DNA of 64,000 nucleotides from Leucoraja ocellata (Eukaryota): positions 1,364,001 through 1,428,000 of the forward strand of contig JAWMAR010000392.1 in assembly GCA_036785375.1 (NCBI GenBank). Direction: 5' to 3'. The notes under the pieces were generated by a model. That model was not told the DNA's origin and did not search any database. It saw nothing but the letters and a program-made list of their open reading frames with translations. Of the stretch, positions 1-61,024 are shown piece after piece. A program made the position numbers and the translations under genes. Numbering within the stretch: the stretch's first letter is position 1; each line of letters begins with the position of its first letter.

Positions 1-100
1 GACTACTGGGACAAGGAGACCCAGAGATTGATCAATCGACACAAGTTGTACATGGCCAATGTCCAGATCGCAATGCAACGATCTAACCACAGCAAGATGG
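1..100 (+). CDS. MHC class I alpha1 exon, 3' part (DYWDKETQRLINRHKLYMANVQIAMQRSNHSKM)
   Basis: Frame-1 translation aligns ungapped to class I residues 58-90: Y59, W60, R84 (non-mammalian type), N86 sequon NHS. Donor G|GTGCGT at 101. Confidence 0.92.
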
Positions 101-132
101 GTGCGTGCATTCCCAGTGCTTGATTCACACGG

Positions 133-808
133 CATTCAGATTCAGATTCAATCTTTATTGCCATTGTGCAGTGTACAGTACAGAGACCACAAAATGCAGT
201 TAGCATCTCACCCAGAAGAGCGAACATAGAATAATGAGCAATAAGTATATATATGTACATACAGTAGTGGTAGTGTAATTTTTTCTGGGGGAAGGAGTGT
301 CCGTGGGGGTGGGTGAGTGGCAGTCACCGAGGTACAGTGTTGAGCAGTGTAACAGCCACTGGGAAGAAGCTGTTCCTGGACCTACTGGTTCGGCAACGGT
401 GAGACCTGTAGCGCCTCCCAGATGGTAAACAGTCTATGGCTGGGGTGAGAGCAGTCCTTGGCAATGCTGCACGCCCTTCGCAGACAACGCTTGCTTTGGA
501 CAGACCCAATGGAGGGGAGTGAGGAACCGGTGATGCGTTGGGCAGTTTTCACCACCCTCTGCAATGCTTTCCGGTCGGAGACAGAGCAGTTGCCATACCA
601 TACTGTGATAGAGTTGCTAAGGATGCTCTCGATGGTGCAGCGGTGGTAGTTCACCAGAATCTGAGGAGGCAGATGGACCTTCTTCAGTCTCCTCAGGAAG
701 AAGAGACGCTGGTGAGCCTTCTTGACCAGAGTTGAGGTATTGTGGGTCCAAGAGAGGTCATCGGAGATGTTGACCCCCAGAAACCTGAAGCTGGAAACAC
801 GTTCCACT
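133..808 (-). mobile_element. Rex1/Babar non-LTR retrotransposon 3' fragment
   Basis: ORF 382-807 ERVSSFRFLGVNISDDLSW...HQRLFFLRRL...CTIESIL; (TGAATC)n tail after a 3' hairpin and AATAAA. Confidence 0.85.
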
Positions 809-1644
809 CATGCCATGGGCAATGGTGTGCACAGACATGTTAGCAGTTCAGTGTAGTTTAGAGATACAGCGTGAAAACAGGCCCTTCGGCCCAGCAAGTC
901 CGCAACGCCTATTGACCCATACACCTGTACTTCTTTGGGGTGTGGGAGGAAACCGAACATCGCGTAGAAAATCCACACAGGTCACGGGGAGAACGTAAAC
1001 CTTCTCTGACCTCTTCATCAGTTTTTCTCTTCCTTCCAAGAGCAGGGTGACCAAAACTCCAAATCAGTCATTCGAGGAATGCCAGCATAATGAAGGATGA
1101 GTCTCACCCCAGTCATTCCCTCTTCTCCCCTTTCCCGTTTGGCAAGAGGCACGGAAGTGTGAAAATGCACACCGCCTGAATCAGGGACAGTTTCTTCAAA
1201 GGCTGTTTAGAGAGAATTGAGCCATTCTAACACCAACTAGATAGCAGGCCGGAGTCACCACCTATCTCATTGGAGACCTTCGGACTATCTTTAATTGAAC
1301 TAAACATTATTCCCTTTATCTGTACACTATCGCCTTTTTGCTGATTGGATAGCATGCAAGAAAAAGCGTCTTAATATACCTCAGTATTCTTGAGGTGTAT
1401 AAAATCGTGAGGGAAATAGGTCGGGTATACTAACAGAGTCTCTTGCTCAGAGCAGGGGAATCGAGAACCAGAGGACATAGGTTTAAGCTAAAGGGGGGAA
1501 AGATTCAATAGGAATCTGAGGGGTAACTTTTTCACTCATGGGTGTATGGAATGAGCTGTCAGAGGAGGTTGTTGATGTCAGGATGATTGCAACGTTTAAG
1601 AAACAATGAGATGGACCGATGGATAGGTCAGGTTTAGAGTGATA

Positions 1645-2135
1645 TAATAATAATAATTGTTTATAGGGACAGTGCATATTAATTAACATTTGCATGTAAA
1701 TATGCAAGATTGTAGCCAATCAGTAGCTAATTTCCGTCTCTAGTCCCAGGCAAAGGTAGGTGGAAGTGTCTTGCCCAAGGACACAACGACAGTACACACT
1801 CCAAGCAGGATTCGAACCAGCCGAACACTTAACCATATAATAACCATATAATAATTACAGCACGGAAACAGGCCATCTCGGCCCTACAAGTCCGTGCCGA
1901 ACAAATTTTTTTCCCCTTAGTCCCACCTGCCTGCACTCATACCATAACCCTCCATTCCCTTCTCATCCATATGCCTATCCAATTTATTTTTAAATGATAC
2001 CAATGAACCTGCCTCCACCACTTCCACTGGGAGCTCATTCCACACCGCCACCACTCTCTGAGTAAAGAAGTCCCCCCTCATATTACCCCTAAACTTCTGT
2101 CCCTTAACTTAGCCCATTGCGCCATCTGTCGTCCT
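1645..2135 (-). mobile_element. tRNA-derived CORE-like SINE with (TTA)n tail, interrupted by a CR1 fragment (1829-2106)
   Basis: Minus strand has A box TGGCGCAATGG, B box GGTTCGAATCC and CORE-like TGTGTCCTTGGGCAAGACACTT. Confidence 0.65.
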
Positions 2136-2435
2136 AACGCAGGCAGGTGGGGCTAGTGCAGAGGGGAATATTGGTCGGTGTGGTCAAGTTGGGCCAAAGG
2201 GCCTGTTTCCATGCTGTATGAGTCTATGACTTGACAATAATTGTAAATAAAACTAATATGTGGCCTCACCAACATTTTGTACAACTGTTGATAGTGTAAC
2301 AGGATGTTGGGTTCCGTGCTGAATTGGGCAGGTAATGGTGGGTAATATCCATCTTGTAGATGCCACCCCTGGGTTGGTGGATGTAGAGGATACGTGTGAG
2401 TTTCGGACGGCTATTGACACTCTCTCCATGTCCAG

Positions 2436-2711
2436 GGGTGAACTACCTGCAGTATACATCGGGCTGCAGTGTCACGGACAACGGGTTAGTGAGCGGGGTG
2501 CGCCAGTACGCCTTCAACGGCCAGGACCTGATCAGTTTCGACTTCGAGCAGTCCATCTGGGTGACCGCCTCCCCCTTGGCCTTGAGCACGCGGGACAAGT
2601 GGAACAGCGACACAGCCAACAACATCTACAAGAAGCATTACACCCAGACGATCTGCGTGGAATGGTTGCAGAAATACCTCAAGTACGGGCACTCCATGCT
2701 ATCTCGCAAAG
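2436..2711 (+). CDS. MHC class I alpha2 exon (276 nt)
   Basis: Acceptor tctctccatgtccag and donor G|GTAGGT. Translation GVNYLQYTSGC...QYAFNGQDLISFD...TRDKW...HYTQTICVEWLQKYLKYG has C101/C164, T143, K146, W147, Y159, W167 and Y171. Confidence 0.96.
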
Positions 2712-2773
2712 GTAGGTCAACCTGTCCCTCCGCCCGCCAATCCTACCCCCCTCTTGTTCCGCCACCTCCTCCA

Positions 2774-2870
2774 TCAGTCTGAAGAAGGGTCTCGACCCGA
2801 AACGTCACCCATTCCTTCTCTCCAGAGATGCAGCCGGTCCCACTGAGTTACTCCAGCATTTGTCTTACCT
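2774..2870 (+). ncRNA. Penelope-derived short repeat with minimal hammerhead-ribozyme motif (core 2779-2806)
   Basis: CTGAAGA-A-GGGT-CTCG-ACCC-GAAA-CGTC: core boxes, 4-bp stem II, palindromic ACGT stem III and a GUC triplet. Confidence 0.65.
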
Positions 2871-2995
2871 CCTCCATCACCCTTGGTTTGGTCACCAGGA
2901 TGGGAAGTCACACCTATTTCTGGTTGACCAAAGGCCACACTTGCTGTGTGGACCTGCATTATCTACCCCCCTTGCCGCTTGGCGTGTAGACCCTT

Positions 2996-3604
2996 ATAAC
3001 CATAAAACCATATAACAATTACAGCACGGAAACAGGCCATCTCGGCCCTACAAGTCCGTGCCGAACAACTTTTTTTTCCCCTTAGTCCCACCTGCCTGCA
3101 CTCATACCATAACCCTCCATTCCCTTCTCATCCATATGCCTATCCAATTTATTTTTAAATGATACCAATGAACCTGCCTCCACCACTTCCACTGGAAGCT
3201 CATTCCACACCGCTACCACTCTCTGCATAAAGAAGTTCCCCCTCATATTACCCCTAAACTTCTGTCCCTTAATTCTGAAGTCATGTCCTCTTGTTTGAAT
3301 CTTCCCTATTCTCAAAGGGAAAAGCTTGTCCACATCAACTCTGTCTATCCCTCTCATCATTTTAAAACCTCTATCAGGTCCCCCCTTAACCTTCTGCGCT
3401 CCAGAGAATAAAGACTTAACTTATTCAACCTATCTCTGTAACTTAGTTGTTGAAACCCAGGCAACATTCTAGTAAATCTCCTCTGTACTCTCTCTATTTT
3501 GTTGACATCCTTCCTATAATTGGGCGACCAAAATTGTACACCATACTCCAGATTTGGTCTCACCAATGCCTTGTACAATTTTAACATTACATCCCAGCTT
3601 CTAT
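2996..3604 (-). mobile_element. CR1 LINE family A (A1) 5'-truncated copy
   Basis: ORF2 C-terminus RSWDVMLKLYKALVRPNLEYGVQFWSP...GMSAGRWD; (GGTTATAT)n tail. Confidence 0.95.
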
Positions 3605-3844
3605 AGCGAGGAAGGGTCCTTATGAGGAAGGGTCCCGACGTTGCTGATCTATTTCCTCCACAGTTGCTGCCTGACCTGTTGAGTTGCTCCAACACTTTGG
3701 GTTTTGCGTCAAACCCCAAACTGCCTTCATGGGTGACTCCACGCCCTCTCGCTGTCTCCCCCATAGTATGGGAACCACTTCCCCACCCGCACACGCGCTG
3801 GGTGATGGGACCCCCCTTCCCTAATGCTAGCCCACTGAGTTATA

Positions 3845-4546
3845 ATTTCCCTTGTCAATTCTTCCCTTCCCTCTCGGTCCACCCCCTCCCCGGGCACTTT
3901 CCCTTGCAACCGCAAGAGATGCAACACTTGTCCCTTTACCTCCCCCCTTGACTCCGTTCAAGGACCCAAGCAATCGTTCCAGGTACGACAGAGGTTTACC
4001 TGCATCTCTTCCAACCTCATCTATTGCGTCCGCTGCTCTAGATGTCAGCAGATCTATATCGGTGAGACCAAGCGGAGGTTGGGCGATCGTTTCGCCGAAC
4101 ACCTCCGCTCGGTCCGCAATAACCAAGCTGACCTCCCGGTGGCTCAGCACTTCAACTCCCCCTCCCACTCCGTCTCCGACCTCTCTGTCCTGGGTCTCCT
4201 CCATGGCCACAGCGAGCAGCACCGGAAATTGGAGGAACAGCACCTCATATTCCGTTTGGGGAGTCTGCACCCTGGGGGCATGAACATCGAATTCTCCCAA
4301 TTTTGTTAGTCCTTGCTGTCTCCTCCCCTTCCTCAACCCCCCTGCTGTCTCCTCCCATCCCCCAGCCTTCAGGCTACTCCCCCTTTTCCCTTTCTTGTCC
4401 CCGCCCCCGATCAGTCTGAAGAAGGGTTTCGGCCCGAAACGTTGCCTATTTCCTTCGCTCCATAGATGCTGCTGCACCCGCTGAGTTTCTCCAGCTTTTT
4501 TGTGTAACCTTCGATTCTCCAGCTTCTGCAGTTCCCTCTTAAACAC
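3845..4546 (+). mobile_element. Penelope-like element 3' fragment: GIY-YIG endonuclease, 3' UTR and hammerhead motif (4416-4443)
   Basis: In-frame TFPCNRKRCNTC...NLIYCVRCSRCQQIYIGETKRRLGDRFAEH...VAQHFN...HPGGMN, followed by CTGAAGAAGGGTTTCGGCCCGAAACGTT. Confidence 0.92.
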
Positions 4547-4750
4547 GAGTTATAATGTGTGTTCAGCCTTCATCAGTCAGGGCATTGGGCTGAAGAGTCA
4601 GGAGGTCGTGACGAAGCTTTGTAAAACGTTGGTTACGCCACATTAGAGCATAGTGTGCTGTTCTCGTCGCCCCATTACAGGGAGGATGTGGAGGCTTTGC
4701 AGAGAGTGCAGAAGGGGTTTACCAGAATGTTGGCTGGATTAGGGGTATTA

Positions 4751-4959
4751 TGCCCCTCTCCCACTTAGGAAACCTGAACGGAAACCTCTGGAGATTTTGC
4801 CCCCCACCCACCCAGGAGGTTGCAGGTGGTTGCCAGAGGTTGCAGGTAGTGGAAGCAGGTGGGGAGACTGACAAAAACCTCCGGGAACCTCCTGGAACCG
4901 CACGGACACCTTGGGTCTCCAGAGGTTTCCGTTCAGGTTTCCTAAGTGGGACAGGGGCA
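4751..4959. mobile_element. PIF/Harbinger-type MITE (209 bp)
   Basis: About 44-bp near-perfect TIRs and a TTA duplication (4748-4750, 4960-4962). Removing it restores an old CR1 fragment. Confidence 0.85.
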
Positions 4960-5138
4960 TTAGCTATAGGGAGAGGTTGGACAAAATTGGATTGTTTTCT
5001 CTGGAGCTCTGGTGGTTGAGGGAAGATGTGATCGAAGAATATAAAGTGATGAGGGACATAGATAGAGTTGAAAATCAGAATCCTTTTTCCAATGTGAATG
5101 TCAAAGACTGATGAAGGGTCCTGACTTTAAAAGTCTCC

Positions 5139-5139
5139 C

Positions 5140-5184
<45 letters not shown>
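5139..5184. repeat. (TAA)n microsatellite, probably the tail of a minus-strand retroelement
   Basis: Direct inspection; abuts CTTTATTGTCATT. Confidence 0.9.
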
Positions 5185-5185
<1 letters not shown>

Positions 5186-6114
5186 GCCTTTATTGTCATT
5201 GTACTTAGAAATACATTTAAATTAGACCTACTCCTGCTCAGTGCAACCAAAACAAGTCCAAACATGACAAAAACACATTCAATGGACAAGGACTTTAAGG
5301 CTTTTGCCTTCCATCACAGTGACGTAGACTCACAGTGGTGGATGTTAAACTGTGTTCATTGTGTGTTCTGTTATTTTATTCTCTGTCATGACCGCAAGGC
5401 ATGTAATTTCGTTCAAGCCAAAGGTTTGAATGACAATAAAGGATACTTTATAATACGTTATATAACTGCTTGAAATAGTAGATACATTATAATTATCACA
5501 CCTAGGTAGAACATTGCACTGGGAGAATATTACACTTTAAAATTTAATGAATACTTTAAAAGAATTTAAAATATATATATATTTTCTGAGTGATCTGTTT
5601 TATAGTGGAATGGATGACAGCATTAATAGAAACATAGAAGCATAGAAAATAGGTGCAGGAGGAGGCTATACGGCCCTTCGAGCCAGCACTGCCATTCATT
5701 GTGATCATGGCTGATCGTCCCCTATCAATAGCAGTAGCGGTGTGGAATGAGCTTCCAGTGGAAGTGGTGGAGGCAGGTTCATTGGTATCATTTAAAAATA
5801 AATTGGATAGGCATATGGATGAGAAGGGAATGGAGGGTTATGGTATGAGTGCAGGCAGGTGGGACTAAGGGGAAAAAAAATTTGTTCGGCACGGACTTGT
5901 AGGGCCGAGATGGCCTGTTTCCGTGCTGTAATTGTTATATGTTATATATATGTTAATAACCCATGCCTGCCTTCTCCCCATATCACTAGCCCCGAGAGCT
6001 CTATCTAATTCTCTCTTAAATCCATCCATTCTCACGTCGTGTGGATCTTTGAGGAATTTAGAGTTCTGATGGCCCAGGGAAAGAAACTGTCCTTGAGTCT
6101 GTTGGTCGGGCTTT

Positions 6115-7073
6115 TAGAAACATAGAAACATAGAAAATAAGTGCAGGAGTAGGCCATTTGACCCTTCGAGCCTGCACCGCCATTCAATATGATCATGGCT
6201 GATCATCCAACTCAGTATCCTGTACCTGCCTTCTCTCCATACCCCCTGATCCCTTTAGCCACAAGGGCCACATCTAACTCCCTCTTAAATATAGCCAATG
6301 AACTGGCCTTAACTACCTTCTGTGGCAGAGAATTCCAGAGATTCACCACTCTCTGTGTGAAAAATGTTTTTCTCATCTCGGTCCTAAAAGATTTCCCCCT
6401 TATCCTTAAACTGTGACCCCTTGTTCTGGACTTCCCCAACATCGGGAACAATCTTCCTGCATCTAGCCTGTCCAACCCCTTAAGAATTTTGTAAGTTTCT
6501 ATAAGATCCCCTCTCAACCTTCTAAATTCTAGCGAGTACAAGCCGAGTCTATCCAGTCTTTCTTCATATGAAAGTCCTGACATCCCAGGAATCCGTCTGG
6601 TGAACCGTCTCTGCACTCCCTCTATGGCAAGAATAATAGCGTTCATCAGTCAGAATGATGAATATAAAAGATGGGAAGTCATATTGCAGTTGGAAAAGTT
6701 TGATTGGGTCTCATTTGGAGTATTGTGTGCCATTGTTCCCGATGTTGGGGAAGTCCAGAACAAGGGGTCACAGTTTAAGGATAAGGGGGAAATCTTTTAG
6801 GACCGAGATGAGGAAAACATTTTTCACACTGAGAGTGGTGAATCTCTGGAATTCTCTGCCACAGAAGGTAGTTGAGGCCGCAGTTCATTGGCTATATTTA
6901 AGAGGGAGTTAGATGTGGCCCTTGTGGCTAAAGGGATCAGGGGGTATGGAGAGAAGGCAGGTACGGGATACTGAGTTGGATGATCAGCCATGATCATATT
7001 GAATGGGGGTGCAGGCTCGAAGGGCCGAATGGCCTAGTCCTGCACCTATTTTCTATGTTTCTATGTCTATGTC
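6115..7073. mobile_element. Two CR1 family B copies in opposite orientation (6115-6629 minus, 6733-7073 plus)
   Basis: RLFPMLGKSRTRGHSLRIRGKSF...EKAGTGY; (TTTCTATG)n tails at both outer ends. Confidence 0.92.
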
Positions 7074-7106
7074 TATTCTAGTCGCCTTGTTAAAGAAAGG
7101 ATGTGG

Positions 7107-7977
7107 TGAGGAGGTTCACATGTTGTATAAACATTCAGTTTAATATTTACACACTCATATTAGTACAAAAGTGCAAAGTGTGTAAACACATTCACTGCCA
7201 AGGGAAGACTAGCGCCATCGTCTGTTGCAACCCATCACCTGACCACCCAGATCGGCGTTGATTTGTCCACCCAGATCACGCGAGTTCACGCTTGTGCTTG
7301 AGCTCGACGAATCTTCTATTGAGTATAGAAGTTGGGATGTAATGTTAAAATTGTACAAGGCATTGGTGAGGCCAATTCTGGAGTATGGTGTACAATTTTG
7401 GTCGCCTAATTATAGGAAGGATGTCAACAAAATAGAGAGAGTACAGAGGAGATTTACTAGAATGTTGCCTGGGTTTCAGCAACTAAGTTACAGAGAAAGG
7501 TTGAACAAGTTAGGGCTTTATTCTTTGGAGCGCAGAAGGTTAAGGGGGGACTTGATAGAGGTTTTTAAAATGGCGAGAGGGATAGACAGAGTTGACGTGG
7601 AAAAGCTTTTCCCACTGAGAGTAGGGAAGATTCAAACAAGGGGACATGACATGAGAATTAAGGGACTGAAGTTTAGGGGTAACATGAGGGGGAACTTCTT
7701 TACTCAGAGAGTGGCAGCTGTGTGGAATGAGCTTCCAGTGAAGGTGGTGGAGGCAGGTTCGTTTTTATCATTTAAAAATAAATTGGATAGTTTTATGGAT
7801 GGGAAGGGAATGGAGGGTTATGGTCTGAGCGCAGGTATATGGGACTAGGGGAGATTATGTGTTCGGCACGGACTAGAAGGGTCGAGATGGCCTGTTTCCG
7901 TGCTGTAATTGTTATATGGTTATTATATGGAATCACGGTTCGACACCAACGTGGCTCGGCCACAAGATGGCGCCACA
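7107..7977 (-). mobile_element. Solo LTR (Gypsy-like), about 260 bp net, interrupted by CR1-A2 (7317-7929, +)
   Basis: TG...CA ends and a 4-bp duplication GTGG (7103-7106, 7978-7981). Removal restores the host CR1 sequence GGATGTGGAGGCTTTGG. Confidence 0.72.
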
Positions 7978-9887
7978 GTGGAGGCTTTGGGCAGGATGCA
8001 GCAGAGATAGACCAGAAAGATATATGGATTAGAGGGTGTCAGCAAAAAGGAGATTTGCAAGACAAGTGATTGGTCCCTAGAGTGTGCTGCCTGGAGAAAT
8101 GGTGGAGATAAACATGATGGCAATGTTTAAAATACATTTAGACAGGCACAGAAGGAACAGAGGAATGGAGGGATTCAAACCCTGTGCTGGCAGGTGTTAT
8201 TAGTTAAAATTGGCATCATGATCAGCACAGACATGACGGGCCGAAGGGCCTGTTTCTATGCTGTATTGTCCTATATTCTACACCAACCCCATATTTCCAT
8301 CTTGTTCCTCCAGATTGCCCCACTCATCTTAACACTTGAGACTATTTGGTCACTTAATTTTAGGATAAGGGAAGAAACCCATATCAGAAGGTTAAGGGGG
8401 CACTTGATAGAGGTTTTAAAATGATGAGAGGGATAGACAGAGTTGACGTGGAAAAGCTTTTCCCACTGAGAGTAGGGAAGATTCAAACAAGGGGGCATGA
8501 CATGAGAATTAAGGGACTGAAGTTTAGGGGTAACATGAGGGGGAACTTCTTTACTCAGAGAGTGGTAGCTGTGTGGAATGAGCTTCCAGTGAAGGTGGTG
8601 GAGGCAGGTTCGTTTTTATCATTTAAAAATAAATTGGATAGTTATATGGATGGGAAGGGAATGGAGGGTTATGGTCTGAGCGCAGGTATATGGGACTAGG
8701 GGAGATTATGTGTTCGGCACGGACTAAAAGGGTCGAGATGGCCTGTTTCCGTGCTGTAATTGTTATATGGTAAAATGGTTAAACCGGAGTACCTGGTGGC
8801 AAGCCATGGACTCCCAGGGAGAATTTGCAAACTCCGTGCAGACAGCAATGGGGTCTGGATCCAACCTGGGTGTCAGGAGCTCTCAATCTGTTGCGCTGTT
8901 GACCTCCACATATTGTGCACTCGAGACCCCCTCCATGATTATCCTCCACAGTTATTATTAGAGATACAGCGTGGAAACGGACCAGTTCGGTCAACTGAGT
9001 CCATGCCGCCCGACGATCCCTGTACACTAATACTATCCCATGCACAAGGACAATTTACTATTTTACCAAGCCAATTAACCTGCAAACCTATAACCATATA
9101 ACCATATAACAATTACAGCACGGAAGCAGGCCATCTCGGCTCTACAAGTCCGTGCCGAATAAATTTTTTTTCCCCTTAGTCACACCTGCCTGCACTCATA
9201 CCATAACCCTCCATTCCCTTCTCATCCATATGCCTATCCAATTTATTTTTAAATGATACCAATGAACCTGCCTCCACCACTTCCACTGGAAGCTCATTCC
9301 ACACCGCCACCACTCTCTGCTTAAAGAAGTTCCCCCTCATATTACCCCTAAACTTCTGTCCCTTAATTCTGAAGTCATGTCCTCTTGTTTGAATCTTCCC
9401 TATTCTCAAAGGGAAAAGCTTGTCCACATCAACTCTGTCTATCCCTCTCATCATTTTTTAAAGACCTCTATCAGGTCCCCCCTTAACCTTCTGCGCTCCA
9501 GAGAATAAAGACCTAACTTATTCAACCTATCTCTGTAACTTAGTTGTTGAAACCCAGGCAACATTCTAGTAAATCTCCTCTGTGCTCTCTTATTTTGTTG
9601 ACATCCTTCCTATAATTGGGCGACCAAAATTGTACACCATACTGCAGATTTGGTCTCACCAATGCCTTGTACAATTTTAACATTACATCCCAGCCTGTAC
9701 AAACCTGTACATCTTTGGAGTGCGGGAAGAAACTGTAGCTCTTGGGGGGGAGGGGGGGGGAACCCACGCAGGTTACGGGGAAAACGTACAAACTCCATAC
9801 ATACAGCACCTGTAGTCGGGGTCAAACCCGGGTCTGTGGCGCTGTAAGGCAGTAAACGGTGCTAGAGGAACTCGGTGGGACAGGCAG

Positions 9888-10697
9888 TATAATGGCAGTT
9901 TTTACAACATTCTCAAAGTCCAACTTCGATAGCCGTTAATTATCGGAGGTATAGCCTAACGCACTCACGACACACATAAGACAGCAAAGATTAATCTCCC
10001 AGACGTCGTTTCTTGATTAATTGCTATTTATTGAAGTAATACAAAACAAAGAAATAACTCATAAACATAGAAACATAGAAATTAGGTGCAGGAGTAGGCC
10101 ATTCGGCCCTTCGAGCCTGCACCGCCATTCAATATGATCATGGCTGATCATCCAACTCAGTATCCCGTACCAGCCTTCTCTCCATACCCCCTGATCCCCT
10201 TAGCCACAAGGGCCACATCTAACTCCCTCTTAAATATAGCCAATGAACTGGCCTCAACTACCCCCTGTGGCAGAGAGTTCCAAAGATTCACCACTCTCTG
10301 TGTGAAAAAAGTTCTTCTCATCTCGGTTTTAAAGGATTTCCCCCTTATCCTTAAGCTGTGACCCCTTGTCCTGGACTTCCCCAACATCGGGAACAATAAC
10401 TATAACTTTCTGTTCTTTATCACTGTTCCATTCACATCATCTAAATCACATAAAAGCTTCTTATAAAGGTATGTCGTCTCGTAACGTGTGTGTGATCGTG
10501 GGAGAAAACTGGTTGCCCCTCATTCTCCGACACCAAACTGAAACTTCTAATCCGAGAGTCTGCGCCAGACGCCTCTAACAAAAGGACACACCCCTACTAT
10601 GTATCAAATCCCACCTACAAAAGTACAGGCCGATTCAAAACTAAAACTGAAAATATTAGACATGATGATAATACTAACAAACTTAATGGCTCCGACA
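9888..10697 (-). mobile_element. Solo LTR with 5-bp TSD, interrupted by CR1-B (10063-10396)
   Basis: GGCAG duplicated at 9883-9887 and 10698-10702. Minus strand runs TGTCGGAG...ATTATA with an internal AATAAA. Inserted into a Penelope-derived repeat. Confidence 0.68.
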
Positions 10698-10797
10698 GGC
10701 AGCATCGGTGGTGGGAATGGGCAGACGGAGTTGTGGTTCAGAGAGTGTTCCTGCCCATTGTCCTCCACAGATGCTGCCTGACCCTCTGGGTTTGTCC

Positions 10798-11089
10798 AGC
10801 ACAGTGGCGCAGTGGTGGAGTTGCTGCCTTACAGCACCAGAGACCCAGGTTTGATCCTGACTATGGGCGCTGAATGTACGGAGTTTGTACCGTCTCTCTG
10901 TGACCGAGTAGGTTTCCACCAGGTGCTCAAGTGTCCTCCCACACTACAAAGACGTACAGGTTAATTGGCTCGGTAAAAATCGTAACTTGTCCCTAATGTG
11001 TGTGTAGCATAATGCTAGTGCTGATCGCTGGTTGATGCAGACTCAGTGGGCCAAAGGGCCTGTTTCCGCGCTGTATCTCTAAAGTCTAA
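10798..11089 (+). mobile_element. tRNA-derived V-SINE (HE1-like); other copies near 15490-15770, 21940-22232, 33787-34090, 40455-40760
   Basis: A/B boxes (TGGCGCAGTGG, GTTTGATCC), V-domain-like GGAGTTTGTAC...GGTTTCC...CTCCCACA and a CR1-like 3' tail. Confidence 0.8.
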
Positions 11090-11149
11090 TGAGCCTCTCC
11101 AATATTAACTCAAGATTCCAGTGCCTATGGCTCCCTGTATCTCCATGTC

Positions 11150-11774
11150 TGAGTATAGGAGCAGAGAGGTTCTACTGCAGTTGTACAAGGTCTTGGTGAG
11201 ACCACACCTGGAGTATTGCGTACAGTTTTGGTCTCCAAATCTGAGGAAGGACATTATTGCCATAGAGGGAGTGCAGAGACGGTTCACCAGACTGATTCCT
11301 GGGATGTCAGGACTGTCTTATGAAGAAAGACTGGATAGACTTGGTTTATACTCTCTAGAATTTAGAAGATTGAGAGGGGATCTTATAGAAACTTACAAAA
11401 TTCTTAAGGGGTTGGACAGGCTAGATGCAGGAAGATTGTTCCCGATGTTGGGGAAGTCCAGGACAAGGGGTCACAGCTTAAGGATAAAGGGGAAATCCTT
11501 TAAAACCGAGATGAGAAGAACTTTTTTCACGCAGAGAGTGGTGAATCTCTGGAACTCTCTGCCACAGAGGGTAGTTGAGGCCAGTTCATTGGCTATATTT
11601 AAGAGGGAGTTAGATGTGGCCCTTGTGGCTAAGGGGATCAGGGGGTATGGAGAGAAGGCAGGTACGGGATACTGAGTTGGATGATCAGCCATGATCATAT
11701 TGAATGGCGGTGCAGGCTCGAAGGGCCGAATGGCCTACTCCTGCACCTAATTTCTATGTTTCTATGTTTCTATG
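11150..11774 (+). mobile_element. CR1 family B copy ending 23 nt upstream of the alpha3 exon
   Basis: ORF 11121-11675; (TTTCTATG)n tail; ATGTCT at both junctions. Confidence 0.95.
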
Positions 11775-11797
11775 TCTCTCTTGCTCTTTTCTCTCAG

Positions 11798-12074
11798 CTG
11801 TTCCAGATGTGTTGGTCTACTCCAGGAGGTCTCCCGACGGTCAGAAACGGGCTCTCCACTGCCTGGCCACTGGCTTTTTCCCGCAGACCATCAACATGAG
11901 TTGGTTCAGGGACGGGCAGCCTGTCCCCGCCAACAAAAACTCTGGCGTTCTACCCAACCACGACGGCACCTATCAGATGAGGGTAACTCTGCTGATGGAG
12001 CCTGCAGAGAGACGGGAGCACATCTGCCGCGTGTGGCACGGCAGCAGGCCCAGAAGGAATGGTCGTTGTCTGGG
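11798..12074 (+). CDS. MHC class I alpha3 (Ig C1) exon, 277 nt, with apparent +1 frameshift near 12049-12051
   Basis: Acceptor ttgctcttttctctcag and donor G|GTAAGT. LHCLATGFFPQTINMSWFRDG...VLPNHDGTYQ...ICRVWH is a C1-set signature. Deleting one C in AGGCCCAGAA gives ...RPEGMVVVW and a 276-nt phase-1 exon. Confidence 0.93.
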
Positions 12075-13244
12075 GTAAGTGATTGTAGATCAGCGCATGT
12101 TCCCTTAACCATGAAGAATGACTTGTACAACCGTAGCTATGCATCCCAACTTCCATACTCAATGAAAGACGCAAAGTGCTAAAGCAACTCAGCTGCTCAG
12201 GCAGCATCTCCGTAGAACATGGATAGGTCACATTGTGGGTCGGGACCCATTTCCACACTGAGAAGCCCGACCCACAATGTCACACATTCTTTTTCTCCTG
12301 AGTTAGTCCAGCACGTTGTGTCTATTTTTGATATAACCCAGCTCTTTGTTTTTTCACATTAAGTGTTGGAATAATTCAGCGGGTCAGGCAGCATCTCCCG
12401 GGGAACATGGATATGATCAGCCATGATCATATTGAATGGCGGTGCTGGCTCGAAGGGCCAAATGGCCTCCTCCTGCACCTATTGCCTATTGTCTATTGAC
12501 GTTTTGGATAGGGGCACCTTTTCAGTCTGATGGCCTACTCCTGCACCTATTTTTCTATGTTTATATGTTTCTATGATAGGCGACATGGAATTCTCTGCCT
12601 CAGAGGGCGGTGGAGGCAGGTTCTCTGGATGCTTTCAAGAGAGAGCTAGATAGGGCTCTTAAAAATAGTGGAGTCAGGGGATATGGGGAGGATGCAGGAA
12701 CGGGGTACTGATTGGGGATGATCAGCCATGATCACATTAAATGGCGGTGCTGGCTCGAAGGGCCAAATGGCCTCCTCCTGCACCTATTGCCTATTGTCTA
12801 TTGACGTTTTGGATAGGGGCACCTTTTCAGTCTGAGGATGGATCCCAACCATGAACTTCGTCTAGCGTCTGAAGAAGGGACTCAACATAAAACATTGTCT
12901 TTCCTTGTTCTCCAGAGATGCTGCCTGACCCATTCAGTTATCCAATACTTTGTGTCATTTTTTTTTGGAAACCAGAATCTGCAGTTCTTTTTTTGTAAAC
13001 CAGCATGCGCAGTTCCTCCGTAGTAAATGCCCCTACAGATGAAAGTCAAAAGCCTTCTTCACCACCGTGAAAACAGTGGTAACTCAGTGGGGCAGGCAGC
13101 ATCTCTGTAGAGAAGGAATGGGTGACCTTTTGGGTCTAGACCCATCTTCAGACGAGTCCCTGGAAAGGGAAATGAGAGATCTAGACAATGATGTAGAGAG
13201 ATATGGAACAAATGAACAAAAGATACGCGACAAAGTAACAATCA

Positions 13245-13910
13245 TGTACAATTTTAACATTACATCCCAGCTTCTATACTTTATAAATCAGAGCATTGAG
13301 TATAGAAGCTGGGATGTAATGTTAAAATTGTACAAGGCATTGGTGAGACCAAATCTGGAGTATGGTGTACAATTTTGGTCGCCCAATTATAGGAAGGATG
13401 TCAACAAAATAGAGAGAGTACAGAGGAGATTTACTAGAATGTTGCCTGGGTTTCAACAACTAAGTTACAGAGATAGGTTGAATAAGTTAGGTCTTTATTC
13501 TCTGGAGCGCAGAAGGTTAAGGGGGGACCTGATAGAGGTCTTTAAAATGATGAGAGGGATAGACAGAGTTGATGTGGACAAGCTTTTCCCTTTGAGAATA
13601 GGGAAGATTCAAACAAGAGGACATGACTTCAGAATTAAGGGACAGAAGTTTAGGGGTAATGTGAGGGGGAACTTCTTTACGCAGAGAGTGGTGGCGGTGT
13701 GGAATGAGCTTCCAGTGGAAGTGGTGGAGGCAGGTTCATTGGTATCATTTAAAAATAAATTGGATAGGCATATGGATGAGAAGGGAATGGAGGGTTATGG
13801 TATGAGTGCAGGCAGGTGGGACTAAGGGGAAACAAAAATTTGTTCGGCATGGACTTGTAGGGCCGAGATGGCCTGTTTCCGTGCTGTAATGGTTATATGG
13901 TTATATGGTT
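13245..13910 (+). mobile_element. CR1-A1 copy with 36-bp 5' inversion
   Basis: CR1 part of ORF 13067-13825; 13245-13280 is the reverse complement of 13299-13334. Confidence 0.93.
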
Positions 13911-15771
13911 AATCATAAAGGACACAGGCCATTGTTAGCTCTTTGCTGGGTGAAAACGAGAAGCTGGTGCAACTTGGGTGGGGGAGGGATGAGAGAGAGG
14001 GAATGCCGGGGTTACTTGCAGTTATATAAATCAATATTCATACTAGGGTATGAATGTCACCCGATCCTTCTCTCCAGAGATCCTGCCTGTCTCGCTGAGT
14101 TACTCCAGCTTTTTGTGTCTATCTTCGGTTTAAACGAGCACCTACAGTTCCGTCCTACATGTGACAACCTCTGATGCCACTTTCAGGGAACTGTATATCC
14201 GTTCTCTTAGTTCCCTATGCTCTACCACTCTCCTCAGGGTCCTACCGTGTGAAAGTGCTGCCCTTGTTCGACTTCTCAAAATACAAGTCTGCGGACTTGT
14301 CTGAATTAAACTCCATTTGCCAATCCTCGGCCCATCTGCCCAGCTGATTAGGATCACACTGTAATTCTTGATAACCAAAAGATTATTTTTTAAAAATGCA
14401 ATAGGAAACTGAGGGGCAACTTTTTTACACAAGGGGTGGTTGGCATATGGTACGAGCTGCTGGTGGAGGTAGTTGAGGCAGGTACTATCACAACATTTAA
14501 CAAGCATTTAGACAGGCACATGACTAGGACAGGTTTAGAGGGATATGGGCCAAATGCAGACAGGTGGGACTAGTGTGATGGGGTGGGTTGGTCTGCATAG
14601 GGAAAATTCGGCTGATGGGCCTGTTTCCACATTGTATGAGTCTCTGACTCTAATCATCTTCCCTCTCTACAATACAACTACTTTAGTGTCATCTGCAAAC
14701 TTACTAGCCATGACTTGTACATTCTCATCCAATTTATAGGAAGGAACTGCAGATGCTGGTTTAAACTGAAGATAGACACAAAATGCTGCTCGGCTGGACA
14801 GGCAACATCTCTGGATAGACAATAAACAAAAAAAATAGACAATAGACAATAGACTTTCGGCCCTTCGAGGCTATACCGCCATTCAATGTGATTATGGCTG
14901 ATCATCCCCAATCAGTACCCCATTCCTGCCTTCTCCCCATATCCCCTGACTCCGCTATTTTAAGAGCCCTATCTAGCTCTCTCTTGAAAGCATGCAGAGA
15001 ACCGGCCTCCACCGCCTTCTGAGGCAGAGAATTCCACAGACTCACCACTCTCTGTGAGAAAAAGTGTTTCTTCATCTCCGTTCTAAATGGCTTACCGTTA
15101 TTCCTAAACCATGGCCCCTGGTTCTGGACTCCCCCTAACATCGGGAACATGCTTCCAGCATCTAACGTGTCCAAACCCTTAACAATAGAAGGAATGTGTG
15201 ATGTTTCGAGTCGAGATCCTTCTTCAGACTCAACCCAAAACGTCACCCATTCCTTCTCTCCAGAGATGCTGCCTGTCCCGCTGGGTTACTCCACCATTAT
15301 ATGTCTACATTTTCATCCAAGTCGTTAATAGAGATCAACATCGGCAATGGGTTCAGCGCGGATCCCTGATGCATACCACTGGTCACGGGCTCCAGTCCAA
15401 ACAACCCAACCTTACATCATCTTCAGATGCTTCCTACCATCAAGTTTATTGTGTATCCAGAGAGAGGGAGAGAGGCCAGGAGGGTGGGATTTAGTTTAGT
15501 GTAGAGATACAGCACGGAAACAGACCCAGGCTGACCATCTATTCACATATTCACAGTAGTTTCTATGTTATGTCATATTCTCATTCACTCGCTACATACC
15601 AGGGACAATTTACAGAGGGGTAATTGACCTACAAACCCGCACGTTTTTCTTGGGATGTGGTGAAAAGCGGGAGCACCGGAGGAAAGCCACGCGGTCACAT
15701 GGAGAATGTTCCACTCCACACACAGACAGGCACCAGAGGTCGGGATTGAACCTGTGTCTCTGGCGCTGTGT

Positions 15772-16481
15772 TAACCATATAACCATATAACAATTACAGC
15801 ACGGAAACAGGCCATCTCGACCCTTCTAGTCCGTGCCGAACACATAATCTTCCCTAGTCCCATATACCTGCGCTCAGACCATAACCCTCCATTCCCTTCC
15901 CATCCATATAACTATCCAATTTATTTTTAAATGATAAAAACGAACCTGCCTCCACCACCTTCACTGGAAGCTCATTCCACACAGCTACCACTCTCTGAGT
16001 AAAGAAGTTCCCCCTCATGTTACCTCTAAACTTCAGTCCCTTAATTCTCATGTCATGTCCCCTTGTTTGAATCTTCCCTACTCTCAGTGGGAAAAGCTTT
16101 TCCACGTCAACTCTGTCTATCCCTCTCATCATTTTAAAAACCTCTATCAAGTCCCCCCTTAACCTTCTGCGCTCCAAAGAATAAAGCCCTAACTTGTTCA
16201 ACCTTTCTCTGTAACTTAGTTGCTGAAACCCAGGCAACATTCTAGTAAATCTCCTCTGTACTCTCTCTATTTTGTTGACATCCTTCCTATAATTAGGCGA
16301 CCAAAATTGTACACCATACTCCAGAATTGGCCTCACCAATGCCTTGTACAATTTTAACATTACATCCCAAGTTCTATACTCAATGCTCTGATTTATAAAG
16401 GCCAGCACACCAAAAGCTTTCTTTACCACCCTATCTACATGAGATTCCACTTTCAGGGAACTGTGCACAGTTATTCCCAGA
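15772..16481 (-). mobile_element. CR1-A2 copy
   Basis: ORF 15854-16555 ending DGKGMEGYGLSAGIWD; family A tail. Confidence 0.95.
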
Positions 16482-16706
16482 TGCAGCAGCTCGACTCGCT
16501 GCGCCACTGTGGCGCCACTGCAGCCTTTGCCCACCCATCCGCCAACCAACCCCACTACCCCGTTTCACCTGTATCCACCCATCACTTGCTCGGCTTTGTC
16601 CCGAAGGCGGGATTGAACCTAGGTCTCTGGTGCTGTGGGGCAGCAACTCTACCAGTTTCGCCACTGTGCCACCTCTGGGTAAGAGACGCTGGGTAAGGGT
16701 TGGGTA

Positions 16707-17300
16707 CATAGAAACATAGAAATTAGGTGCAGGAGTAGGCCATTCGGCCCTTCGAGCCTGCACCGCCATTCAATATGATCATGGCTGATCATCCAACTCA
16801 GTATCCCGTACCTGCCTTCTCTCCATACCCCCTGATCCCCTTAGCCACAAGGGCCACATCTAACTCCCTCTTATATATAGCCAATGAACTGGCCTCAACT
16901 ACCCTCTGTGGCAGAGAGTTCCAGAGATTCACCACTCTCTGTGTGAAAAAAGTTCTTCTCATCTCGGTTTTAAAGGATTTCCCCCTTATTCTTAAGCTGT
17001 GACCCCTGGTCCTGGACTTCCCTAACATCGGGAACAATCTTCCTGCATCTAGCCTGTCCAACCCCTTAAGAATTTTGTAAGTTTCTATAAGATCCCCTCT
17101 CAATCTTCTAAATTCTAGAGAGTATAAACCAAGTCTATCCAGTCTTTCTTCATAAGACAGTCCTGACATCCCAGGAATCAGTCTGGTGAACCGTCTCTGC
17201 ACTCCCTCTATGGCAATAATGTCCTTCCTCAGATTTGGAGACCAAAACTGTACGCAATACTCCAGGTGTGGTCTCACCAAGACCCTGTACAACTGCAGTA
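16707..17300 (-). mobile_element. CR1-B copy
   Basis: ORF 16798-17292; family B tail. Confidence 0.95.
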
Positions 17301-17356
17301 GGCGCTGACTGATAGTTCCTGTCTGCTGATATTACAATGACTTCTTGTTTAACCAG

Positions 17357-17488
17357 ACCAAGGTGGCCGTGTTCCCATATGGCTAGTGATCCCGGCTATC
17401 CTGCTGCTTCTGTGCACACTGGGGGTTGTTTTCTACTTGTGGAAGAATGGTTCGGGAGTGGTGAAAGGCTGCTGCTCGTTTGGCAAGG
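17357..17488 (+). CDS. MHC class I connecting peptide/transmembrane exon (DQGGRVPIWLVIPAILLLLCTLGVVFYLWKNGSGVVKGCCSFGK)
   Basis: Acceptor cttcttgtttaaccag, donor G|GTAAGA, 132 nt, phase 1-1. About 22 hydrophobic residues followed by K. Lies in a unique island between repeats and is absent from the ORF track. Confidence 0.9.
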
Positions 17489-17682
17489 GTAAGACCGCAT
17501 TGCACCATCTGTTTTGCATGCAACAGCCGCTCGCATTTGTTAACCTCAAGCACTTGGTTTAGTTTAGACATACACCAATGTAACAGGCCCTTCGGCCCAC
17601 CAAGTCCATGCTGACCATCGATCACCCATTCATACTAGGTGTATGTTATCCCATTTCTCATCTACTCCCTACACACTAGGGA

Positions 17683-18547
17683 TAGGTATGTTACAAAACC
17701 TACCTGAATCGTCATTGGGAATCTGCCCTCAGCCAGGTCCGCGATTTTGGCGCTGTTTGGAGGGGGCGGGTTTAAAACGCGATTTTTACTAGGCTGTACT
17801 AATCGCAGATGTTCAGCCTAGTAAATCATTAACGAAAAATCGCTGCAAGACCCGGTCGCAAAAGGTATTATTAGTTTTATAGGCCTCGATAATATAGTTA
17901 TAATAATTTTAAAATTACTGTCTCATTCCGCAACCTCTCGCAGCCCCAGGGTTTTATAAAGCAAACAATTAAAGGTATGTACCTTATTTTTACATTAAAT
18001 GGGGCATATATATAACCCTGTATATCAAGTTATCTATAGCGAGTAGTTCATTTTGGGCTTTTTATATCCCGCAGTATTTTTCTCGGCATTTGAGGGCACT
18101 AATCCAGCGCGATGTCAACGTTCTAAACCAGCGCGTTCCACATGAACCCACTAGAAAGCCGATTTAAAATGGGCATTTATTTACAGCAATTGAACACTAA
18201 ATTCCTTCCATTTGGCCTATAAATTAATGTAAATTAGATATAAAAATCATGTTATATTGTGAATTATTTGTGAATAATCTTTGGACACTTGGGCTATTTA
18301 AAAATGTTAATCTTTCCTTAAGAAATGGGCTTTTGACTATCCAAGATCACAGCTTTTTTGTAATGTCCATTGAAAATCAATAGAGAAACAAGATGCTAAT
18401 TTCCGAGTATGAAAATGGCCATAACTTTTTTAATACTTGAGATATGAAAGTGAATTTGGTGTCAAATTAAACTTATTGTTATGCTTTATCTGATGGGATA
18501 AATTGCAGACTTGATTTTTAAAATCTCAAAATTTTGTAACATTGCTA
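17683..18547. mobile_element. Non-autonomous TIR DNA transposon, 865 bp (copy 1)
   Basis: TIRs TAGGTATGTTACAAAA / TTTTGTAACATTGCTA; flanks CTAGGGA/CTAGGGG; near-identical copy at 44722-45580. Confidence 0.88.
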
Positions 18548-18844
18548 CTAGGGGGGGGGGGGGGGGGGGAATTTACAGAGGGACAGTTAACCTGCAGATC
18601 CGCACATCTTTGGGAAGTTGGAGGAAACCGGAGCACACAGAGCAAACCCACGCGGTCATAGGGAGAACATGCAAACTCTGCACACGCAGACTGCACCCGT
18701 GGTCAGGATCGAACCCGTGTCTCTGGCACTGTGAGACAGCAGCTCTACCCGCTGCACCACTGTGCTGCCCCAGCACAAAGTAAAACAAATATTCTTAAAT
18801 ACACTGAAAATTAAACGACTATATTACAATCCTTGTCAAGGATG

Positions 18845-19180
18845 CATTAACCCCACCCGGGCACGGACGTAACTCCGTAAAAGGGGCGGGCAGCCGGCTC
18901 GGGCAGAGTCCTCCACCGCCTGGCACCGTGACTGGCGGATGGATGCCCAGCCAACACAACCAGGACATCGTCAGCCGACCCTCTCCCCTATACACAGGGT
19001 GCCCAAAGATGAGGGTGGTGGGTGTGGAGTGCAGCCAGAAGGCAAAGGAGCAGCCCCTTTAGATATTGGAACAGGGGCTGCAACCTCACACACTGCACAG
19101 ACATGTGGAACTTAGACTCATCCAGCTGTTGTATGGGACTCCTTGGTTCACTCAGTTCTCCGTGCAGTCGTGTAGTGCTC
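18845..19180 (-). mobile_element. Degenerate Tx1-like (L1 clade) ORF2 C-terminal fragment
   Basis: Minus translation LDESKFHMSVQCVRLQPLFQYLKGLL, then after a frameshift FWLHSTPTTLIFGHPV, resembling the Tx1 zinc-knuckle region. Confidence 0.65.
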
Positions 19181-19243
19181 TCTTGGTTCTCTGTGCAACA
19201 ATTCAGCACTTGATCAGTTCCCTCATTCCATCAGTGCAGCACT

Positions 19244-20046
19244 ATATAATATAACCATATAACAATTACAGCACGGAAACAGGCCATCTCGACCCTTCTA
19301 GTCCGTGCCAAACACATAATCTCCCCTAGTCCCATATACCTGCGCTCAGACCATAACCCTCCATTCCCTTCCCATCCATATAACTATCCAATTTATTTTT
19401 AAATGATAAAAACGAACCTGCCTCCACCACCTTCACCGGAAGCTCATTCCACACAGCTACCACTCTCTGAGTAAAGAAGTTCCCCCTCATGTTACCCCTA
19501 AACTTCAGTCCCTTAATTCTCATGTCATGTCCCCTTGTTTGAATCTTCCCTACTCTCAGTGGGAAAAGCTTTTCCACGTCAACTCTGTCTATCCCTCTCA
19601 TCATTTAAAAAACCTCTATCAAGTCCCCCCTTAACCTTCTGCACTCCAAAGAATAAAGCCCTAACTTGTTCAACCTTTCTCTGTAACTTAGTTGCTGAAA
19701 CCCAGGCAACATTCTAGTAAATCTCCTCTGTACTCTCTCTATTTTGTTGACATCGTTCTTATAATTAGGCGACCAAAACTGTACACCATACTCCAGAATT
19801 GACCTCACCAATGCCTTGTACAATTTTAACATTACATCCCAACTTCTATACTCAATGCCCTGATTTATAAAGGCCAGCATACCAAAAGCTTTCTTTACCA
19901 CCCTATCTACATGAGATTCCACTTTCAGGGAACTGTGCACAGTTATTCCCAGATCCCTCTGTTCACCTACATTCTTCAATTCCCTACCATTTACCATGTA
20001 CGTCCTATTTTGATTTGTCCTGCCAAGATGTAGCACCTCACACTTA
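19244..20046 (-). mobile_element. CR1-A2 copy
   Basis: ORFs 19326-19604 and 19605-20036, split by a 1-nt indel. Confidence 0.95.
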
Positions 20047-20048
20047 CA

Positions 20049-20180
20049 CTCCCTCTGTTCCCTATGCTACAGTGCAGCGCTCCCTCTGTTCCCTATGCAT
20101 CAGTGCAGCACTCCCTCCGTTCCCTATGCTACAGTGCAGCGCTCCCCCTGTTCCCTATGCATCAGTGCAGTGTTCCCTCT
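20049..20180. repeat. 31-bp minisatellite, about 4.2 units, alternating variants
   Basis: CTCCCTCTGTTCCCTATGC(TA/AT)CAGTGCAGCR. Confidence 0.9.
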
Positions 20181-20866
20181 CTCCAATATCTCCAGCTGCG
20201 GTCTAATCTCAAGGAAGAATTGTCCCAGAATATGATAGAAATTTAGAAATTAGGTGCAGGAGTAGGCCATTCGGCCCTTCGAGCCTGCACCGCCACTCAA
20301 TATGATCATGGCTGATCATCCAACTCAGTATCCCTGTACCTGCCTTCTCTCCATCCCCTTAGCCACAAGGGCCACATCCAACTCCCTCTTAAATATAGCC
20401 AATGAACTGGCCTCGACTACCCTCTGTGGCAGAGAGTTCCAGAGATTCACCACTCTCTGTGTGCAAAAAGTTCTTCTCATCTCGGTTTTAAAGGATTTCC
20501 CCCTTATCCTTAAGCTGTGACCCCTTGTCCTGGACTTCCCCAACATCGGGAACAATCTTCCTGCATCTAGCCTGTCCTACCCCTTAAGAATTTTGTACGT
20601 TTCTATAAGATCCCCCCTCAATCTCCTAAATTCTAGAGAGTATAAACCAAGTCTATCCAGTCTTTCTTCATAAGACAGTCCTGCCATCCCAGGGATCAGT
20701 CTGGTGAACCTTCTCTGCGCTCCCTCTATGGCAATAATGTCCTTCCTCAGATTTGGAGACCAAAACTGTACGCAATGTGTTTGTGTTCAGTTTGATGCGG
20801 AGCCGATGGCAGTGTTTCCGCAGTGACATTTCTCAGCAGCTGACTTGTGCCTTTTCATTTGTTTAG

Positions 20867-20896
20867 GATCCAGTGAGATTAACTCTTCCTCATCAG
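20867..20896 (+). CDS. Short cytoplasmic exon (GSSEINSSSS)
   Basis: Acceptor cttttcatttgtttag, donor CAG|GTAAGT, 30 nt, phase 1-1, Ser-rich like class I tail exons. Confidence 0.82.
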
Positions 20897-21058
20897 GTAA
20901 GTAACATTGTACGGGCTTGTTGGACTAGGGCAGTTGCTAAATTCAGCTCCTGGCATGGATCACAATAATGGAACAGAGCACATGAATGTGCCCTTCAACC
21001 CACAGTGTCTGTGCCCGAACATGATGCCATGACCATCACTTATCTGCCTGCCCATAAT

Positions 21059-21745
21059 CCATATAACCATATAACCATATAACAATTACAGCACGGAAAC
21101 AGGCCATCTCGGCCCTACAAGTCCATGCCGAACAAATTTTTTTCCCCTTAGTCCCACCTGCCTGCACTCGTACCATAACCCTCCATTCCCTTCTCATCCA
21201 TATGCCTATCCAATTTATTTTTAAATGATACCAATGAACCTGCCTCCACCACTTCCACTGGGAGCTCATTCACACCGCCACCACTCTCTGCGTAAAGAAG
21301 TTCCCCCTCATATTACCCCTAAACTTCTGTCCCTTAATTCTCAAGTCATGTCCTCTTGTTTGAATCTTCCCTATTCTCAAAGGGAAAAGCTTGTCCACAT
21401 CAACTCTGTCTATCCCTCTCATCATTTTAAAGACCTCTATCAGGTCCCCCCTTAACCTTCTGCGCTCCAGAGAATAAAGACCTAACTTATTCAACCTATC
21501 TCTGTAACTTAGTTGTTGAAACCCAGGCAACATTCTAGTAAATCTCCTCTGTACTCTCTCTATTTTGTTGACATCCTTCCTATAATTGGGCGACCAAAAT
21601 TGTACACCATACTCCAGATTTGGTCTCACCAATGCCTTGTACAATTTTAACATTACATCCCAGCTTCTATAGCGAGGAAGGGTCCTTATGAGGAAGGGTC
21701 CCGACGTTGCTGATCTATTTCCCAGGCAACATTCTAGTAAATCTA
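21059..21745 (-). mobile_element. CR1-A1 copy with composite 5' junction
   Basis: CR1 body to 21670, then about 50 nt identical to 3605-3653, then a CR1-internal piece. Confidence 0.9.
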
Positions 21746-22289
21746 CATATCCATAATCCATATCCCTCCATTCCTATTGTATCCATATACCTATCCAAAA
21801 ACCTTTGAAATGCCACTTTCCTATCTGCTTTAACCACCTTGGCCGTTTGTTCTAGGCAGTCACCCCCCCTTGTGTGAGGTGGGTTGAGGGGAGGGTGGGG
21901 AATGTGGTGGTGGGGAGAGAGAAGGACGTGGGACGGTGTTTAGTTTTGGGATACAGCATGGAAACTGACTCTTCAGCCCACCGGGTCCACACCAGCCATC
22001 GTGCACATGTTCACTAGTTCAACGTCACCCCACTTTTGCACCCACCCCCTGACACCAGGGTCAATTAGCCTACAAACCTTCGGGATGTGGGAGGAAACCA
22101 GGACAGCCAGAGGAAACCCACCTGGTCGCAGGGAGAACGTGCAAACTCCACACACGCAGCACCCGAGGTCAGGATGGAACCTGGGTCTCTGTCACTGTGA
22201 GGGAGCAGGTCCACCCACTGCGCCAACTGTGCTGTCTGATCATACATCTTCCCTGGAATTTCCACTCACCTTGTTACTCTCCATCTTAG

Positions 22290-22411
22290 GTTCCACCAGC
22301 AGTCAGTCTTTGCAGAAGGATGTAACAGCAGGAGGAGTTGACACGAACGACAAAGAGAAAATGCTTCCCAAGTCAGACTCCCCAATCATGAAGTCTGACT
22401 GCCCAGTCTGA
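22290..22411 (+). CDS. Terminal cytoplasmic exon (GSTSSQSLQKDVTAGGVDTNDKEKMLPKSDSPIMKSDCPV*)
   Basis: Acceptor ttactctccatcttag, in phase with the previous exon, open to TGA at 22409-22411. Confidence 0.75.
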
Positions 22412-22500
22412 AGAAGGGTCTCGACCCCGAAACGTCATCCATTCCTTCTCTCCAGCGATGCTGCCTGCCCCACTGAGTTACTCCAGCATTTTGTGTCTGT
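22404..22500 (+). ncRNA. Penelope-derived repeat with hammerhead motif overlapping the class I stop codon
   Basis: CTGAAGA at 22408-22414 contains the TGA at 22409-22411; GGGT-CTCG-ACCC-C-GAAACGTC runs to 22436. Confidence 0.7.
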
Positions 22501-60824: not shown

Positions 60825-61024
60825 NNNNNNNNNNNNNNNNNNNNNNNNNNNNNNNNNNNNNNNNNNNNNNNNNNNNNNNNNNNNNNNNNNNNNNNNNNNN
60901 NNNNNNNNNNNNNNNNNNNNNNNNNNNNNNNNNNNNNNNNNNNNNNNNNNNNNNNNNNNNNNNNNNNNNNNNNNNNNNNNNNNNNNNNNNNNNNNNNNNN
61001 NNNNNNNNNNNNNNNNNNNNNNNN
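60825..61024. other. Assembly gap (200 N)
   Basis: Run of N. Confidence 1.

Follow-up and report, generated by a model that had tools for sequence, protein, structure and literature searches.

A 64,000-nucleotide (nt) stretch of Leucoraja ocellata DNA (contig JAWMAR010000392.1, positions 1,364,001 to 1,428,000 of the forward strand; hereafter the window) carries, on its plus strand, the 3′ two thirds of a gene for a major histocompatibility complex (MHC) class I heavy chain. Its domain sequences and its position in a phylogenetic tree identify it as the skate orthologue of a known nonclassical class I gene of cartilaginous fish, UDA, and not as a new lineage. Approximately 66% of the window consists of dispersed repeats, as recognized by self-match elsewhere in the window.

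Exons of the class I gene

The gene has six exons, whose five internal donors are all GT and whose five acceptors are all AG; the window begins within alpha1, so that the leader and the greater part of that domain fall before its first base. Residues are numbered by the published alignment to HLA-A2 (HLA, human leukocyte antigen). The features are as follows.

1..100, plus strand: 3′ part of the alpha1 exon, cut at the window edge, HLA positions 58-90; carries Y59, E63, R66, R70, N77, R84 and N86 (glycan site)
2436..2711, plus strand: alpha2 exon, 276 nt, Pfam MHC_I E 7e-18; carries N93, Q96, C101, R114, N119, D122, L123, T143, K146, W147, K156, K157, Y159, C164, W167 and Y171
11798..12074, plus strand: alpha3 exon (immunoglobulin C1-set), 277 nt in the assembly and thus one base over, Pfam C1-set E 4e-16
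12052..12052, plus strand: extra frame-shifting base, missing in contigs of runs X1, X4 and X2 and likewise in the X18 loose end
17357..17488, plus strand: exon of 132 nt for the connecting peptide and the transmembrane segment, with the helix at about 17377-17442; matches protein P0002
20867..20896, plus strand: Ser-rich cytoplasmic exon of 30 nt, present in P0041 and skipped in P0040, the Leucoraja erinacea RefSeq isoform X2
22290..22411, plus strand: last coding exon, with stop codon TGA at 22409-22411 and a [DE]xxxML motif at 22349-22366
22404..22497, plus strand: 5′ end of a dispersed repeat, overlapping the last codon and the stop codon

Against Pfam the short alpha1 part reaches no better than E 0.009, and the transmembrane exon encodes a Cys-Cys pair immediately inside the membrane. 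For the repeat that overlaps the stop codon, 19 of its 27 other matches in the window begin at or before 22406.

Assignment to UDA and the residues that mark it

Reference domains for each lineage were taken from Supplementary File 10 of PMC10751288, with identities counted by eye. The window product is identical to little-skate UDA (Leer_UDA) at 90/92 positions of alpha2, 32/33 of the alpha1 part and 83/92 of alpha3. A search with alpha2 gave 13 proteins among 47 candidates, and a full-length search gave 35 among 1851, with a sharp drop after 14 elasmobranch-type matches. There is one copy in the window, and the searches gave one orthologous match per named shark or ray species, the matches being 90% clusters. 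In a tree of 30 rows the window falls in an 18-row clade together with P0016 (support 98/99), a nurse-shark GenBank protein that is identical to the published Gici_UDA domains, and within that clade in a 5-row skate clade (100/100). The window shares 53-98% identity with the 17 other clade members and 26-37% with the 12 class I rows outside the clade; the latter are UBA-like, UCA-labelled, UFA-like, bony-fish and mammalian, the UFA-like rows lying at 26-30%. The sequence-only reading of this DNA had proposed a divergent, possibly unassigned lineage; that proposal is overturned by the nesting of the gene in a described clade that already shares the substitutions it had flagged. The correct annotation is UDA, and the discovery value is small, the lineage being published and a skate reference sequence in existence.

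UDA is described as a single-copy nonclassical gene of unknown function in the MHC class Ib cluster (PMC10751288, PMC12562908), which also includes UEA and UFA. Several database gene models join UDA to a neighbor: P0003 and P0013 (Rhinoraja, Scyliorhinus) fuse it with a UFA-like gene downstream, and P0005 (Carcharodon) with a UCA-labelled gene upstream.

All of the residues on which the sequence-only reading relied are present under the HLA-A2-based numbering: the anchors Y59, R84, T143, K146, W147, Y159 and Y171, the substitutions L123, N93 and N119, and the basic residues R66, R70, R114, K156 and K157. We tabulated them in 17 UDA orthologues and 12 other class I rows. N93 and R114 each occur in 17/17 UDA sequences and 0/12 others; N119, K156 and R66 in 17/17 versus 1/12; R70 in 17/17 versus 2/12; L123 in 16/17 versus 3/12; and K157 in 12/17 versus 6/12. 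Positions 63, 66, 67, 70, 73, 77, 80, 84, 93, 95, 97, 99, 114, 119, 147, 155, 156, 159, 167 and 171 are the same in 17/17. The classical peptide-end anchors are kept in 15-17 of the 17 orthologues, whereas most are gone from the two UFA-like rows; the window keeps seven, plus L123, and Y7, which lies outside the window, is present in P0041. Taken as a pattern of sequence, the flagged residues are the signature of the UDA lineage. The groove is thus atypical, as had been claimed, by comparison with classical class I, but typical of its own lineage. The published UDA domains (Leer-UDA, Gici-UDA, Cami-UDA) bear this out: the window is near-identical to those of little skate, and N93, N119, L123, R70, R114, K156 and the anchors are common to the lineage. 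Elephant-shark UDA in Supplementary File 10 also has N93, R70, R114, N119, L123 and K156/K157.

The skate sequences vary in a way that sets UDA apart from classical genes. Across 15 of them, a set that includes sequences of unnamed species or individuals and possibly some chimeric contigs, 6/125 alpha1/alpha2 positions vary (87, 105, 106, 109, 151 and 161), and there is no variation at 38 tabulated groove and interface positions; in alpha3, 12/84 positions vary among 14 sequences. The window differs from its skate UDA relatives by about 3-4% substitutions outside the groove and by the one extra alpha3 base of the assembly. P0002 and P0043-P0053 comprise many distinct skate UDA sequences, each with 9-14 differences from the window, located in alpha3, loops and tail, with the groove unvaried.

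Classical class I polymorphism sits in the groove, as in UAA, in contrast to the variation of skate UDA, and no such groove polymorphism was found at the 38 positions of the 15 skate sequences. The other marks of UAA, H93, D119 and an aromatic residue at 123, are likewise absent from the window, which has N93, N119 and L123. Nor does the window show the loss of anchors that marks the CD1-like UFA and UGA. The teleost Z lineage, an old nonclassical class I lineage whose anchors are retained and whose groove is conserved, is alike in concept to UDA. The published Z domains (Teni_Z) retain H93, D119 and F123 and by these residues are not orthologous. The shark classical UAA (nurse shark AF220063; PDB 6LUP) shares with the window the fold family and the peptide-end anchors, including R84, and unlike it has H93, D119 and F123.

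Groove, cytoplasmic tail and isoforms

The gene keeps the features of a type I membrane heavy chain: the disulfide cysteines, the N86 glycan site, Q96, D122 and both sets of anchors. Pairing with beta2-microglobulin is predicted, the contact being likely preserved by the joint replacement of H93 and D119 with N93 and N119 and by the retention of Q96 and D122. As in classical class I, the groove would be closed at its ends over a bound peptide, by Y59, Y159, Y171 and W167 at one set of positions and by R84, T143, K146 and W147 at the other. Between them, four invariant basic residues (R66, R70, R114 and K156) would favor acidic side chains. In HLA structures position 156 is turned toward the groove and position 157 away from it, so that only K156 of the Lys pair should count. 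Acidic ligands are therefore probably preferred, a reasonable reading of the residues that would apply to all UDA. That the groove is unvarying from sharks to rays suggests a narrow, conserved ligand set instead of allele-specific presentation, and this set might be read by innate-like T cell or natural killer (NK)-type receptors. Almeida et al. are said to have reported in 2020 that UDA keeps eight of nine anchors, with a conserved groove and a conserved set of peptides. Low, tissue-biased expression is a further trait ascribed to UDA. The earlier view that this is a peptide-binding nonclassical class I molecule of a cartilaginous fish is supported. No UDA structure is among the best 60 of 178 PDB matches, and in passages of PMC9586880 and PMC8236899 nothing was found on UDA or on H93/D119.

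Being basic and the same in sharks and rays, the groove could also accommodate a nonpeptide anionic ligand, such as a phosphorylated metabolite or a lipid head group, much as MR1 or CD1 do. The replacement of F/Y123 by L would fit such a ligand, as would the lipid binding reported for the sibling lineages UFA and UGA (PMC12562908). Against it, both end pockets of UDA keep the classical anchors in nearly all orthologues, whereas the two UFA-like rows have lost most of theirs, and we regard a nonpeptide ligand as unlikely.

The tail is Ser-rich with membrane-near cysteines. A [DE]xxxML motif is present in 8/8 ray and skate tails, the window having D where the others have E, and no YxxPhi motif occurs in these eight. 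Shark tails have no strict [DE]xxxML (0/9); 7/9 have VxxP[LF][LVI] near the end. The motif is dileucine-like, and we treat it as a lead only: shuffled versions of each tail contain it at rates of 0.02-0.09, and the tails come from related sequences. It may route UDA through endosomes in rays and skates. Dileucine signals have been described in class I tails of another fish, the cod (PMC3760826). Skate tails extend 4-12 residues beyond the end of the ray tail.

Forms that skip alpha3 are represented by P0001 (skate, 5 contigs) and P0018 (the Hemiscyllium ocellatum RefSeq isoform X2), in both of which alpha2 is joined directly and in frame to the transmembrane exon. All exon borders share one phase, so the skipping may also be splicing noise. 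The alpha1-alpha2-transmembrane make-up of these isoforms is the same as that of HLA-G4 (PMC7677236), a mammalian gene product to which the UDA form is comparable by analogy only. Among the papers listed by literature searches on the skipping of alpha3 or on dileucine motifs in class I molecules of sharks, none dealt with UDA, key UDA papers lying outside the searched set. A more far-reaching and doubtful proposal joins these elements: UDA might be monomorphic, travel through endosomes and present acidic or phosphorylated peptides, with [DE]xxxML as an invariant-chain-like sorting signal in ray and skate tails and an alpha3-less, probably beta2-microglobulin-free isoform in sharks and skates. 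If true, a class I molecule would follow a class-II-like route in the oldest adaptive immune system. The ligand of UDA is described as unknown (PMC10751288), and concrete points for testing are offered by its basic, unvarying groove, by the motif in the tail and by the form that lacks alpha3.

The extra base in the alpha3 exon

The alpha3 exon of the assembly is 277 nt long, that is, 3n+1, and when it is spliced at its GT-AG borders the frame shifts near 12052; as assembled, the transmembrane helix goes unread and a premature TGA follows at 20874-20876. The sequence-only reading of six spliceable exons was right about the GT-AG boundaries but had missed this shift, with which a single reading frame through the exons fails. 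When the window is read past 12052, its product is identical at 300/311 positions to P0002 (from a contig of 1272 nt) and at 298/311 to the Leucoraja erinacea RefSeq protein XP_055521806.1, both of which contain all six exon products; 38 positions separate it from the Amblyraja protein.

Four of 23 listed runs (X1, X2, X4 and X18) were compared with the window over 11780-12185, as contigs. The best of the four is X1, whose sole contig spanning 12052 has no differing letter over 12010-12170 and leaves out the single base at 12052; it carries G at 12040 like the window, a letter absent from the other three runs. X1 has no cover over 11780-12003, and such holes are uninformative. The contigs of X4 and X2 also leave out the base, and the loose end of X18 continues without it. 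In the nearest protein cluster, that of P0002, 15/15 listed members are in frame (15 of its 32 members being listed), and the 311 codons of the window gene contain no other disabling change. Because X1, X4, X2 and X18 lack the base and the proteins of the cluster are in frame, the extra base is, on these comparisons, in all likelihood an assembly error. The assembly copy will thus resemble a pseudogene through one probably spurious base. X1 and X18 are both labelled organism A, and X18 shares five letters with the organism B runs; X1 agrees with the window at 12040 and X18 does not, which may reflect a pair of alleles, a second copy or mislabelling.

It is improbable that the base belongs to a real frameshift allele of UDA, which would be null or would encode a secreted chain without the last alpha3 strand and the membrane anchor. 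The base is after all present in the assembly, and contigs lose rare variants, so that a heterozygous allele could be hidden. A stop close to the last junction escapes nonsense-mediated decay, and the premature stop, 20 nt before that junction, would likely do so. An alpha3-less form exists in skate (P0001) and under a real allele would remain in frame. But the X1 contig is identical to the window, including its specific G at 12040, and yet lacks the base, as do X4, X2 and X18; the listed cluster members are all in frame; and there is no second disabling change. A form that skips alpha3 would bypass the frameshift in any case. Rescue by alternative splicing was considered and rejected: the next AG in the transmembrane exon lies 6 nt on and leaves the phase unchanged, and the GT sites upstream of the donor of alpha3 look, by eye, like poor matches to the consensus.

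The evidence is very probably best explained jointly by a skate UDA, likely paired with beta2-microglobulin and binding a narrow set of probably acidic peptides, whose extra base is likely an assembly error. Some observations weigh against this explanation. The capacity of contigs to hide a heterozygous frameshift allele, noted above, is one of them. The tree has no row for the classical UAA of sharks, and long branches come together in its outgroup part. Y59 is lost in 2/17 orthologues. Searched by tblastn with five relatives, the window gave no class I exon beyond those of this gene, and no neighbor gene was found there. The splice junctions that the sequence-only reading had wanted checked are in part recovered, alpha2-alpha3 and alpha3-transmembrane being present in loose ends of X18 and X4 contigs, but these contigs depart from the window at 7-8 letters, and no record marks either run as RNA. 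They indicate spliced forms from close relatives or other alleles, not an exact copy of the window. Among the runs listed, no RNA run covers the alpha3 stretch. A new or unassigned class I lineage, for which one might cite the identity of only 26-37% to the 12 non-UDA rows, a best solved relative (9CH4, E 2e-54) that belongs to another shark lineage, nurse-shark UGA by eye, and the generic names given by databases, deserves next to no credence, being refuted by the alpha2 match to Leer_UDA, the nesting with Gici-UDA and the shared diagnostic residues.

Open reading frames in unique sequence beyond 22.4 kb appear by eye to be mobile-element-like or chance frames. At 62050-62940 on the minus strand and nearby there is a nonrepeated open frame of 297 amino acids that by eye is retrotransposon gag-like, and a run of 200 N at 60825-61024 marks an assembly gap.

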